Source: a virus (lineage: Duplodnaviria; Caudoviricetes). Taken from it: a stretch of 64,000 bases of DNA. The notes under the pieces are model-generated. The model made no database searches. It was not told the origin of the DNA and saw only the letters and a program-made list of their open reading frames with translations. The stretch lies in the IMG/VR virus record IMGVR_UViG_2574180309_000001, positions 8,867 through 72,866 of that record; one strand, written 5' to 3'. A program made the position numbers and the translations under genes. This document shows, piece by piece, positions 20,862-25,039 of this stretch. Every line of letters begins with the position of its first letter. Position 1 is the first letter of the stretch.

Positions 20862-21245
20862 ATGGAACAATTAGCATTCCTACCAATAATGGACAAAGAG
20901 ATGGAGAAAAAGATGCAAAAGGAAGTTGTGAGCATTCTAAAAGAGTATCGCGCCTTAAAAGCACGTTTTGAGAATGAAATGGAGCAACAACAAGAGGGAA
21001 TTAGTCTGTTTCCTGAGATAAGGAATACAAGACATGTCAGTAATATCAAATTCAAGCAAATTGATAAGGCTTTACAACACGTTTTAGATTATGATGAGGC
21101 AGAGATTATTAAGATGAAGTATTTGAATGGTGGGAAGTTAAAGGATAGTTTTATCTACACTGAATTATCAATGAAGAAAGATCATTTCTATTATAAGAAG
21201 AAAAATGCTATTCGATTAATCGCAACTTCATTGGGTATGATTTGA
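20862..21245 (+). CDS. ArpU/RinA-family late transcription activator
   Basis: EIIKMKYL...YTELSM...YYKKKNAIRLIATSLG; at the end of the early region. Confidence 0.85.
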   Translation: MEQLAFLPIMDKEMEKKMQKEVVSILKEYRALKARFENEMEQQQEGISLFPEIRNTRHVSNIKFKQIDKALQHVLDYDEAEIIKMKYLNGGKLKDSFIYTELSMKKDHFYYKKKNAIRLIATSLGMI

Positions 21246-21334
21246 AGATATAGAAAAATAGTGCATTATATAATATTCGTATGTTAATATATTATAGTTA
21301 TTTATTTTTAATATATTAATAGGGAGATTAAAGC

Positions 21335-21835
21335 ATGTTTAAGAAAACGAAATTATTATTTGCTATATTTACTAGTATGATTATTTTACTTGTAGGCTGC
21401 GGAGGACCTGAAATACCTTATAAAAAAGGAGAGGTCTACAATTATAAAGATGGTGATGCTTTTGTTAACATCACAGAAGATAATGAATGGAAAGTTAAGG
21501 GTGGCCGTGGAATGAAATCAGAAGCCATTTATAAGGTTGAACCTATGGATGAGTTTAATGCAGGCCCTTACTCTGTTATAAAAATATCCTTGAAAGAAGT
21601 CATTAGTAAGAAAGATCCTTGGCTTATTAGACAAGACTATGAATACTATATTCTGTCACCGATGGAAGAAGGATTTGGAACGGTATATATAAGTTCTTCT
21701 TATCAAGATGATAAAGATTTGAAGAAATTTAGAAAGCAGTTTGAAAGTGCAGATGACAAAGAAGCATTTATGAAACAAGAGATAGAGAAAGAGAAAAAGA
21801 AGTATCGCTTAAATAAATTTAGAAAAACAAGTTAA
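21335..21835 (+). CDS. Lipoprotein moron
   Basis: Lipobox LVGC; own AT-rich upstream region and terminator (21869-21903). Confidence 0.75.
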   Translation: MFKKTKLLFAIFTSMIILLVGCGGPEIPYKKGEVYNYKDGDAFVNITEDNEWKVKGGRGMKSEAIYKVEPMDEFNAGPYSVIKISLKEVISKKDPWLIRQDYEYYILSPMEEGFGTVYISSSYQDDKDLKKFRKQFESADDKEAFMKQEIEKEKKKYRLNKFRKTS

Positions 21836-21910
21836 TAATTGATGGAGTTATTAGATAAATAGTAAATGTAGAGCAGGGTCATTAAAGTGATTCTGTTCTT
21901 TTTATATTTA

Positions 21911-21975
21911 AAAACGTCGACAAAACGCCGATAAAAAAGGGGGAATTTTAAAAATGAAAATAGCGATAAATTATA
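21911..21975 (+). promoter_or_regulatory. Putative late promoter with ArpU-binding direct repeat
   Basis: Tandem AAAACGTCGAC / AAAACGCCGAT then GGGGG and a TAAATT -10-like element. Confidence 0.45.
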
Positions 21976-21979
21976 TGTA

Positions 21980-22773
21980 CAAGCCCTTTGACAACCGTAT
22001 ATCGAAGAGGATTAGTACACCTATAAGTGAAACGTTCTTATGCGAGAATGTCACGGTAACGTATACCGCATAGTAGGGCGGGCAAGGCGGTACGAACCCG
22101 CGTTCAGACGAAAAGACCAATGAATGTATAACAATGACATATTCCAGTGTGGCGGGTGTGAGATAACTCGCATTCGTCATGCTGTTTCTATTGTATTTAT
22201 CAATCAGCTCGGAATGCGTCCTCTGGGTTGATAATAAATATAAGTCTATTTCTCTCTAATATGTCGGTTCTTGAAAATGGAATGGAGGTGGTTGCTCATG
22301 ATTGAGTGACATTTGCATTCTAAAAAGCTAAAAAGTATACGTATCTCGTACATTAGTAATTACCCATGATTCTTATTAATGACCAAAACGAGGGCAAAGA
22401 GTTCCACTCTTTGTTTGAGCCAATACAGCGAAAACATTCCCCTTCCGTCCCTCTAGTGTATTGGTTCAAACAAGGCGTTGGAAGATTCATATACGTCTTG
22501 GATATAAACCCTTTATAATTCGATATTGGTCAGCTAAGGGCCGCGACACCCGATGTATTGACCGACTCTACGGAGTATAAACGAGAAGACTCCTAGTCTT
22601 CTCTCAGCCACCGAACGTAAAGCGCGTAGCTAATAAGAGCTAAAAAATTACATGATGCGGTGGCTTGGAGAAGGTTGAGGGTATTCAGCCTTGATCTAAG
22701 AGAAACTTTTGCCATTTGTTTTCTCTCTTTTCTCCCATCCCCTTGAAAGCTGTCACTTCGGTGATGGCTTTTT
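21980..22773 (+). ncRNA. Large (~800 nt) structured non-coding RNA / hairpin array
   Basis: No credible ORF; about 15 consecutive stem-loops with plus-strand G-U pairs and UNCG tetraloops; closes with terminator AAAGCTGTCAC-TTCG-GTGATGGCTTT. Confidence 0.7.
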
Positions 22774-22833
22774 GTTATGTAGGATATTCTGTTATTTTGT
22801 CGAATAGATAGAGTAGGAGAGGAGGAATATAAT

Positions 22834-23034
22834 ATGAAAAGATTTTCGGTTACTGTACATTGGATTGGTGGAGGAAATGAAGAATATGTTATTTCCTATA
22901 AAAGAAGCGACGCCACAACAGATGATGTTGAGCAATACATTATAAGAAATGAATACCGTTTTATAAAGCTTGGTGAAGAGTTGGTCAATCTTGATAATAT
23001 ATTAGCGATAAAAGTTAATGAAATCGGTAACTAA
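22834..23034 (+). CDS. Small hypothetical protein
   Basis: RBS GGAGG; terminator at 23052-23080. Confidence 0.65.
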   Translation: MKRFSVTVHWIGGGNEEYVISYKRSDATTDDVEQYIIRNEYRFIKLGEELVNLDNILAIKVNEIGN

Positions 23035-23573
23035 AACTAACTACTAAAGAAAAAGCATCCAAAATGGGTGCTTTTTTCTTTGTTATATAGAAATTACACA
23101 TTAAACGTATTTAATGAGTTTGCTAAGTATAAAGACAATCGATAATCATACAATGATATGGAAGGGTCTTTTCTAACGTGTTAGTTACCTCAAAGTATAT
23201 GTATCTTTTGGCGCCTGGGCGAGGGTGCTTTTTTTATTGCACATTATGATAAGGACAAGCATATATTAAAGTGTAGGACAAGTTCACTCGCTTGTATCCT
23301 ATTTCAATACTCATAGAAAACCCCTTATCACATTAAGAGCACCCAACCATTGGATGCTCTTTTAAAATTATCTTATTCATATCGAAAATGTTTTAACATA
23401 CAATAAGGTGAGAGTAGGCAAAAGAGTCAACGATACTCTAATAATTTGAAAGAGCGTCCATTGCAGGTGCTCTTTTATTTTGAACAAAATGGACATTTGG
23501 TTTAAAGGATTCTATATAAATAGGTAGAATCTAATTACTTGGTTCACATTTTAATCCAAGGGGTACAAATTCG

Positions 23574-23765
23574 ATGCGACGTGAAAAGGATTTGTTGAAA
23601 CAATGGAAGGCGGATTTGCAAGCTGTTCAAGAAGAGAAAAGGCTGAAGAAGAAAGCTAAGAAAAAGAATAAGAAATATAGCATTCCGGGTAATACAGCTG
23701 ACTTCATGGATGGCAAGAATACTTATCGTAAAGAGAATGGGGTATGGAAGCAAAGAAATAAATAA
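23574..23765 (+). CDS. Small basic protein
   Basis: 63 aa, Lys-rich, RBS AAGGGG. Confidence 0.5.
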   Translation: MRREKDLLKQWKADLQAVQEEKRLKKKAKKKNKKYSIPGNTADFMDGKNTYRKENGVWKQRNK

Positions 23766-23899
23766 TGTGAGGATAAATGATTTTGATTAAATGTATAGGA
23801 ATTATAGTAGGCGCTGCCTTGATTTGGGCGGCGTCTTATTTGTTGTTAAGGAAAGATAAGGATTAACAAAACAAACGAACACAACGAGTGAAAATAAAA

Positions 23900-24025
23900 C
23901 TGTCTAAAAGTTGACCCTTTTGTACAGTTGAAATGTATAGGGTAAAAACTTTGTAAACAGATAGTTGTTAATGTCTAAAAGGTAGTCTAAAATAAAAGTG
24001 TATAATTCTTAAGACTTTTAGACTA
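23900..24025. promoter_or_regulatory. Putative res site
   Basis: GTCTAAAA three times plus inverted TTTTAGAC directly upstream of the resolvase. Confidence 0.55.
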
Positions 24026-24041
24026 TTTTGAGGTGATTTGG

Positions 24042-24617
24042 ATGGCTATCGTTGGTTATGCAAGGGTGAGTACAAAAGATCAAAACTTAGATGCACAAAT
24101 TGAAAGGTTAACAGAATATGGATGTGAAAAGATATATTCTGAAAAGTACAGTGGAGCTAATAGTGATCGGGAAGAATTGCAAAAGGCATTAGAGTATATG
24201 AGAGAAGGGGATAAATTTGTTGTTTGTAAAATAGATCGTTTAGCTAGATCGATATTTGATTTGCATAAGATTGTAAATCAATTAGCTGATCGAGGAATAG
24301 CGGTAGTATTTCTTAAAGAACAAATTGATTTCTCTACACCAGCAGGTAAATTGATGTTTACTATGTTAGGGGCTATTGCTGAGTTTGAAAGGGATTTAAT
24401 TAACGAAAGAACAGCTGAAGGAAGAGAAAGAGCTAAAGCAATGGGCAAACATATGGGACGTAAGGGGCAGGATGAAAAACAGGTGAAGCAGGCTATGAAC
24501 TTATTCTTTAATAGGAAAGAGAATGGTTTGAGTGTAAATGATATTTCAAAAATGACGGGAGTTCCGCGTTCTACTATTTATGCTAAGGCGAAAGAATTAA
24601 AAGAGGAGGAATTATGA
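24042..24617 (+). CDS. Serine resolvase/invertase
   Basis: GYARVSTKDQ, GD..VV.KIDRLARS, EFERDLI.ERT.EG, C-terminal HTH. Confidence 0.92.
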   Translation: MAIVGYARVSTKDQNLDAQIERLTEYGCEKIYSEKYSGANSDREELQKALEYMREGDKFVVCKIDRLARSIFDLHKIVNQLADRGIAVVFLKEQIDFSTPAGKLMFTMLGAIAEFERDLINERTAEGRERAKAMGKHMGRKGQDEKQVKQAMNLFFNRKENGLSVNDISKMTGVPRSTIYAKAKELKEEEL

Positions 24618-24808: not shown

Positions 24809-25039
24809 TTAAGCCACTCTATAATCTTTGTTTTTAAGCTTTTTTCTAGTATCCATGAATCCTATAATCATTATCGCCATGCATATTAACTTAAGCCAAC
24901 GAACCTCCTGGTGGTACATTAGCCCAGAAAAGAATTCATAGGCATATAACAAACCGACAATTGGAAATAGCCAAGTCATAAATTTCAAATCTTTTAGATG
25001 AAACTTATAATTATTAATCTTTTTCCACATATGTATCAA
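24809..25039 (-). CDS. Small membrane protein
   Basis: Two TM helices, basic tail; resembles its neighbour (YEF..G, KDYR/KNYR). Confidence 0.65.
   Translation of the reverse strand: MIHMWKKINNYKFHLKDLKFMTWLFPIVGLLYAYEFFSGLMYHQEVRWLKLICMAIMIIGFMDTRKKLKNKDYRVA

Follow-up and report, generated by a model that had tools for sequence, protein, structure and literature searches.

What is the stretch of roughly 800 nucleotides, without genes, that opens the late genes of a Bacillus cereus-group phage, and what might it do there? The stretch occupies positions 21979-22776 of the + strand of the window, as we call the whole 64,000-nt piece of DNA that was analysed. It lies in a gap between open reading frames (ORFs) that is bounded by the stop of a DUF5512 gene (21835) and by a 66-codon ORF (22834). 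Across 76 full-length copies, sequence conservation sets in sharply at 21979 and ends at about 22778. A first-pass annotation of the window, made from the letters alone, had proposed a structured noncoding RNA of no named family, encoded on the + strand at the head of the late region and lacking a credible ORF. The last point holds, since the longest ORF in 21954-22811 has no more than 69 aa on either strand and none is conserved. The core of the proposal is borne out by covariation, by strand asymmetry, by the lack of a match in Rfam and by the fixed place of the element behind late regulators, and we put at about 0.9 the probability that the + strand encodes a genuine structured RNA whose family Rfam does not contain. 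The features discussed below are these:

20862-21245, + strand: gene for an ArpU-family late transcription activator (TIGR01637 match; upstream homologue in 70 of 76 copies).
21335-21899, + strand: DUF5512 gene (Pfam DUF5512), including its own terminator (terminator-like site at 21870-21899).
21913-21978, + strand: putative ArpU-dependent late promoter, with direct repeats at 21918-21924, 21929-21935 and 21964-21970 and a -10-like TTATAT at 21971-21976.
21979-22190, + strand: 5' domain of the RNA (89-99% identity among copies; helices 2-9 of the consensus structure).
22145-22184, + strand: 18-bp G-U-rich hairpin that closes the 5' domain, followed by UUUCUAUU; scored as terminator-like.
22191-22243, + strand: two-part hairpin whose loop carries a CCUC/CCUU motif (compensatory changes in helices 11 and 12).
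22284-22291, + strand: G-rich run resembling a Shine-Dalgarno (SD) sequence, GGAGGUGG, beside a small hairpin (22292-22309) and a mini-ORF (22298-22309).
22394-22500, + strand: bistable region, in which hairpin A (22394-22414), a central hairpin (22415-22469) and hairpin C (22471-22500) stand against a long helix (22402-22427/22457-22483); both covary, the first in helices 16, 18 and 21.
22465-22742, + strand: 3' core common to several phage genera, with expansion sites at 22528-22540 and 22588-22596 and a CU-rich tail at 22722-22742.
22745-22776, + strand: closing intrinsic terminator with a 12-bp stem, UUCG loop and U-tract (fold energy; helices 38-40).
22834-23034, + strand: first downstream gene on the late strand, 66 aa, of no family, 57 nt after the U-tract.

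The predicted fold of positions 21980-22780 (801 nt) has an energy of -252.8 kcal/mol on the + strand (z -4.51; none of 20 shuffles was as good), compared to -202.5 kcal/mol on the - strand (z -1.42), an asymmetry of 50 kcal/mol. The 18-bp stem 22145-22162/22167-22184, which the annotation had described as free of mismatches, with six G-U pairs, and as folding well on the + strand only, was recovered at the same positions with exactly these pairs, and its hairpin has an energy of -26.7 kcal/mol on the + strand versus -9.6 kcal/mol on the - strand. The closing terminator hairpin gives -14.8 kcal/mol on the + strand (z -5.6) versus -7.9 kcal/mol on the other. Also present as previously described are a 17-bp stem (22411-22427/22457-22473) that bears a CU-rich loop (22436-22453), the tetraloops C-UACG-G (22568-22573) and C-UUCG-G (22756-22761), and the intrinsic terminator itself. 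Across 21200-24100, we counted 11 terminator-like hairpins, while shuffled sequences gave 1.5 +/- 1.4.

Conserved copies of the element occur in over 130 viral contigs and in 22 named Bacillus phage records. The latter were obtained by blastn against a phage collection, where the region is unannotated except in three records that label it 'hypothetical protein'. Query coverage is at least 80% in four records (two accessions each of phages 0105phi7-2 and IEBH), 72-73% in phages LY4 and 250, and 58% in PfNC7401 and PfIS075. Scanning IMG/VR with two exact motifs drawn from the element returned 88 and 94 stretches; all 143 collected loci matched the element, 79 of them contained both ends, and 76 distinct full-length copies were retained. 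These copies are 69-96% identical to the window, with conservation inflated at two sites by the use of motifs inside the RNA itself to gather them. The first 210 nt of the RNA are the most uniform stretch we quantified, at 89-99% identity among copies.

Covariation, which the first-pass annotation had named among the checks to make, was assessed on the alignment of the 76 copies. The RNAalifold structure, limited to window columns, comprises 209 pairs in 40 helices. In this structure 93.9% of the alignment cells are paired, compared to 40.7-46.2% when the partners are slid by 1-3 columns, a margin that is large even though a structure derived from the same 76 sequences is somewhat favoured in such counts. 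Changes on both sides occur in 79 of the 209 pairs (34-47 when slid) and in 622 cells (97-176 when slid), and the covariation score is 0.201 compared to 0.036-0.053; none of 500 shuffles reaches the observed value in any of five covariation measures. The compensatory changes are well above both the slid and the shuffled controls. They are concentrated in the two-part hairpin at 22191-22243, where 96-98% of cells are paired and 14 of 18 pairs have two-sided changes, and at 22415-22469 (9 of 13 pairs); the hairpin 22394-22414 and the segments 22604-22670, 22671-22692 and 22292-22309 are also among the best-supported helices. The 18-bp stem is nearly invariant, with 99.6% of its cells paired and one-sided changes that turn G-U into A-U or G-C. 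Compensatory pairs beyond controls, a preference for one strand and the lack of a conserved ORF are what is generally expected of a structured noncoding RNA, and all three were found.

Length variation among the copies is due to insertions after 21981, at 22528-22540, at 22588-22596 and at 22744. The insertions measure up to 249 nt and fold as long hairpins, with z values of -6.0 to -7.8 against mononucleotide shuffles. Hairpin insertions at a few sites are the pattern of expansion segments in structured RNAs, and as they differ between copies, they are the gain and loss of hairpin modules that had been predicted. A small hairpin of about 23 nt is inserted after the conserved 5' ACA (window position 21981) in nine copies, for example L035, L070 and L039. 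The position of these nine insertions, right after 21981, supports a transcription start at or before 21979-21981. Separately, two overlapping self-complementary sequences, GUAUAC and UACGUA, lie at 22335-22343, a segment that is unpaired in the consensus structure, and are kept in most copies; they could represent a dimerisation site.

A coding role was considered and rejected. The small ORFs of the window are intact in at most 23 of the 76 copies, ORFs of at least 80 aa occur in only 13 copies, at differing places and on differing strands, and a search for 3-base periodicity of substitutions in the 76 copies found none, so that neither conservation of a frame nor a codon phase in the variability is present. 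One very short frame is kept more widely. A perfect SD-like GGAGGUG stands 9 nt ahead of AUG AUU GAG UGA (22298-22309), and the SD-like run together with AUG-AUU-NNN-UGA is present in 67 of 76 copies, with covariation between the third codon and the arm of the hairpin 22292-22309 (helix 14). A conserved peptide was rejected as the reason for its conservation because the residue at codon 3 varies (E, K, G, M) with the hairpin arm, and the AUG is absent from nine of the 76 copies. Judged by its sequence, the arrangement may be a ribosome-loading mini-ORF or a start-stop element. The G-run 22284-22291 is predicted to pair with the CU tail at 22735-22742 (helix 13), with 86.7% of cells paired and one-sided changes only.

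We searched Rfam 15 with the whole window and obtained no match at the gathering score. For 21800-23600, extending the search to E values of up to 10 gave only chance-level matches and no large RNA family, GOLLD and ROOL included, in agreement with the earlier statement that no named family could be assigned. A tRNA/tmRNA scan of the 64-kb window found none. When the loci of seven relatives were compared to Rfam, the sole match was DUF3800-VIII (RF03075), in one of them. In this PfNC7401-type copy, the closing terminator is expanded to a 64-nt hairpin (L005:3113-3175) whose score of 60.4 bits exceeds the cutoff of 40.2; such a terminator form is present in one of the 76 full copies. Among genomes of the host family, DUF3800-VIII was found in 1 of 105, following a 277-aa ORF and with no link to the window RNA. 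We rejected DUF3800-VIII as the identity of the RNA, given that the match covers the terminator only, is confined to the PfNC7401 type and leaves the window itself unmatched. The B. subtilis control genome also matches DUF3800-VIII. The available portions of the literature searched, including PMC10219371, PMC11526630 and PMC6669507, contain no description of the RNA; the supplementary list of 224 motifs of Weinberg et al. 2017 (PMC5737381), which lay outside this search, could overlap with it in part.

The surroundings of the element suggest when it would be expressed. The ArpU-family gene at 20862-21245 matches TIGR01637 with 41.7 bits (E 1.2e-10), just under the cutoff of 43.1. Using tblastn with the window proteins, a same-strand ArpU homologue (43-100% identical) was found upstream in 70 of 76 copies; in the six copies without one, the upstream flank is at most 559 nt. 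The distance from the end of arpU to the RNA is about 70-80 nt in many copies. The window has the DUF5512 gene and its terminator between arpU and the promoter boxes, a gene that is absent from most relatives. The tandem repeat and promoter that the annotation had placed downstream of arpU correspond to CGAYAAA boxes at 21918, 21929 and 21964, the only tandem cluster of this box in the window. More generally, the 95 nt preceding the RNA hold two to four direct repeats at a spacing of about 11 nt, and copies that differ in ArpU type differ in the sequence type of these repeats as well. A -10-like box comes next, 5-7 nt ahead of the conserved TACAAGC. In all copies with enough flank, TerS and TerL are encoded on the same strand, 2.5-6.4 kb downstream.

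In the available part of PMC3753634, Ltr-type late promoters are shown by experiment to have direct repeats just distal to the activator gene, which are needed for activation and bind ArpU, and the Ltr-type switch is said there to govern phage-mediated gene transfer in Gram-positive bacteria too. The present locus has the same order as these Ltr (ArpU/RinA/LtrC/LtrA)-dependent promoters, namely activator gene, type-specific direct repeats upstream of a -10 box, and late promoter. The difference is in what follows: in the phages covered by that part of PMC3753634, the promoter directly precedes terS, whereas here the two are separated by about 800 nt of RNA, a terminator and small genes spanning 2.5-6.4 kb. 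Quite probably, then, the RNA is the first product of the late promoter, with a predicted, ArpU-dependent transcription start near 21979.

Within the RNA, the region 22394-22500 can form two mutually exclusive sets of pairs. In one, 22406-22414 pairs with 22394-22402 upstream to form hairpin A, and 22471-22500 then folds as hairpin C. In the alternative, the downstream partner of 22402-22414 is 22470-22483, and the central hairpin is thereby lengthened to a 25-bp rod. All cells of hairpin A are paired (100%), and hairpins A and C each have three pairs with two-sided changes. The 12 rod pairs that conflict with this arrangement are 94.7% paired (42-67% when slid) and include 39 cells changed on both sides (0-7 when slid). 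When the shared strand is substituted, both of its partners show the matching change, as for G22413, which is A in 10 copies. Hairpins A and C against the rod have the layout of a switch (1:2/3:4 against 2:3); another reading is that the outer four rod pairs are a kissing contact between loops A and C. We also sought a covarying alternative pairing that involves the arms of the terminator and found none. Two candidates for an antiterminator opposing these arms, six complementary nucleotides at 22306-22311 and a limited match of the CU tail with the 3' arm, are not conserved and were rejected.

The terminator hairpin itself (22745-22772, followed by the U-tract) is conserved. It stands between the promoter and the genes, and among the 68 copies with at least 400 nt of downstream flank, 63 have a same-strand, SD-preceded ORF of at least 35 aa after it. 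The distance from the U-tract to this ORF has a median of 66 nt and is 0-29 nt in 14 copies, which is too close for a separate promoter. Further + strand terminator-like hairpins are located at 23049, 23210, 23809 and 24670, all before terS (25710), so a late transcript from 21979 must pass them all. Sigma-70-like promoter matches are present at 24984 and 25074, upstream of terS.

A hint that the region is transcribed in close relatives comes from RNA libraries. Parts of the stretch are contained in 20 rows from 13 studies, 12 of these rows being recorded as RNA, and we compared four RNA runs from four studies, all as assembled contigs of relatives' copies. Contigs, which may include DNA, cover the element in three of the four runs (X5, X10 and X12; none in X3). 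The X5 contig has 1094 nt, covers 21941-22825, continues downstream and ends at 21941 with no loose end; X10 has a 35-kb contig across the element, and X12 has separate contigs over 21966-22232 and 22464-22825. The X10 and X12 contigs extend upstream of the RNA. A contig continues past the terminator in each of the three runs, with the contigs being silent on starts, ends, strand and level.

The 3' part of the RNA extends beyond the phages described so far. In Waukeshavirus (BMBtp3, TP21T) and Beceayunavirus (BceA1), an unannotated gap of 590-620 nt right after a gene annotated as 'positive control sigma-like factor' contains the 3' core. BLAST finds window 22465-22636 at 75-77% identity together with the CU tail and a terminator, while the 5' part is unrelated to that of the window. 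In other phages and prophages the 3' core occupies the same place behind Xpf-type or sigma70-r4-like genes. The unannotated gap of about 1 kb in the genome records of Cecivirus, Waukeshavirus and Beceayunavirus is on this evidence a gene. The unrelated 5' part of the Waukeshavirus type has an AAGGGG followed, after a 9-nt spacer, by AUG UAG.

A covariance model of the 3' core (R1; 123 positions) was built from 24 sequences, 22 of them from the 76 copies and two from the other genera. With this model, 32 of 104 genomes of the host's GTDB family match at E <= 1e-5; a single genome holds as many as four copies. Inspection of 24 genome loci revealed ArpU upstream in 10, a sigma-like gene upstream in five and neither recognised in nine, where four of the nine had just 1.5 kb of flank and one adjoins an NRPS fragment. 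The last of these, L176 (G043:C1:5715000-5720500), is a chromosomal 3' core with 85.8 bits, directly after an ORF with an NRPS condensation-like domain and lacking a late regulator on its upstream side; it could have been left by a prophage or have been recruited for another function.

What the RNA does is a separate question. The late genes for packaging and morphogenesis lie downstream on this strand and in many cases leave no space for a separate promoter, and we accordingly read the RNA, tentatively and at somewhat less than even odds, as a late-operon leader that gates read-through. This reading was absent from the first-pass annotation, of which the structured noncoding part stands; it is a further step taken from the terminator and the close genes. 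ArpU, or the sigma-like late regulator in the other genera, would activate the late promoter, and the ~800-nt RNA would be transcribed first. It would consist of a lineage-specific 5' domain, a bistable middle and the cross-genus 3' core with its intrinsic terminator, and its fold would set the share of transcription that passes its own and the further downstream terminators, either by attenuation or by put/EAR-like antitermination acting on RNA polymerase. The terminated product would build up as a discrete late RNA.

RNA-based processive antitermination is represented by HK022 put and Bacillus EAR, alongside which the lambda pR'-6S RNA-tR' arrangement can be considered. The locus resembles these systems in having a promoter-proximal structured RNA, a terminator and a long operon with further terminators. 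It differs in that the RNA is roughly five to ten times larger and matches none of them by sequence or model, and an action on polymerase is hypothetical here. Several points argue against the leader reading. At 0.6-1.1 kb, the RNA is several times the size of known antitermination RNAs and attenuators, so that a leader role may not explain most of its structure. The search for covarying pairings that compete with the terminator arms had a negative result, terS may be transcribed from other promoters, as the sigma-70-like matches at 24984 and 25074 suggest, and nine of the 24 genome copies have no recognised late regulator upstream, one of them lying by an NRPS fragment.

The main rival account, somewhat unlikely in our estimate, takes the element for a free-standing late RNA of the GOLLD/ROOL kind, released at the terminator and acting in trans, either in an architectural or oligomeric capacity or by binding ribosomes, host factors or defence proteins; read-through would then be incidental. 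In favour of this account, the element is bounded by its own promoter and a strong, conserved terminator; its size, its many helices and its expansion hairpins also fit. According to the available part of PMC12286853, GOLLD is phage-encoded, combines a conserved 3' region with a variable 5' region and rises at lysis. The element has the same layout of conserved 3' core and variable 5' region and lies in the lysis-phase part of the genome, and with GOLLD and ROOL as presented there, it shares large size (here 0.6-1.1 kb), rich structure, phage origin and an unsettled function. The SD-like run and mini-ORF, several CU-rich, anti-SD-like loops and the self-complementary GUAUAC/UACGUA in an unpaired segment would also suit an RNA that acts in trans. 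However, the element has no similarity to either Rfam model, and the window has no tRNAs, whereas GOLLD and ROOL often lie near tRNA islands (PMC12286853, available part). Unlike both, it has a fixed place between the late activator gene and the late genes, and this fixed late-promoter position, together with genes 0-29 nt from the terminator in 14 copies, argues for a role in cis as well. The leader role and the free RNA role are not exclusive.

The second option of the first-pass annotation, a precursor from which RNases would release a number of small RNAs or decoys, we consider improbable. A precursor would agree with the succession of self-contained hairpins and with the gain and loss of modules between copies, the 18-bp perfect duplex could serve as an RNase III site, and the CU-rich loops resemble seed regions of Firmicute small RNAs. 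However, the long-range helix 22284-22291/22735-22742 and the long-helix alternative tie distant parts into one folded unit, and neither internal promoters nor repeated units are present.

A DNA-level element (a pac/cos site, replication origin or recombination site) or a decayed coding sequence is very improbable: packaging sites can lie upstream of terminase genes, and a serine recombinase gene is close by (24033-24617), but the conserved G-U pairs would turn into A-C mismatches in the opposite strand or a DNA cruciform, the two strands differ by 50 kcal/mol, pairing is preserved by compensatory changes, terS is 2.5-6.4 kb away at a variable distance, and a decayed gene is opposed by the lack of a conserved ORF and of codon periodicity.

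To our knowledge, conserved structure has been described for few bacterial or phage RNAs longer than 500 nt, most of which still await a function. The present RNA is abundant, and its position, as the probable first product of the late promoter and ahead of a terminator and the packaging genes, is unusually informative, so that temperate phages of B. thuringiensis that can be cultured offer a direct test of its function. An RNA layer would be added to the ArpU/RinA-type late switch if the RNA gates the late operon. A more far-reaching and, in our view, doubtful idea is that it belongs to a hitherto undescribed class of large, modular phage RNAs that combine a common 3' core with interchangeable 5' domains and are made first when the late promoter fires, whatever the type of regulator. 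Such an RNA would be a switch that licenses the 25-kb late operon via terminator-resistant RNA polymerase, and may also load ribosomes at the SD-like run and mini-ORF or form higher-order particles like the homo-oligomeric nanocages of GOLLD and ROOL.

As for distribution beyond the viral records, a degenerate motif found 15 stretches in contigs of a one-genome-per-species collection, 12 of them in Bacillus cereus-group records and many on contigs of 50-55 kb. The other three, which likewise carry the 5' motif, are in records labelled Paenibacillus sp. 102 (L146) and Candidatus Kapaibacterium MAG (L151) and in an 865-nt Chryseobacterium contig with a coverage of ~1 (L158), probably reflecting contamination or mislabelling and not true hosts.

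Downstream of the RNA, positions 23035-23573 form a second stretch without a credible ORF. Terminator-like hairpins lie on its + strand at 23049-23077 and 23210-23229, and inspection by eye showed more sites with a hairpin and a T-run near 23340 and 23450. The RNA contigs of relatives join 23109 straight to 23479, so the window has about 369 extra bases there. Between this stretch and terS, the serine recombinase (resolvase) gene at 24033-24617 has positional homologues (38-100% identity) in 20 of the 76 copies.
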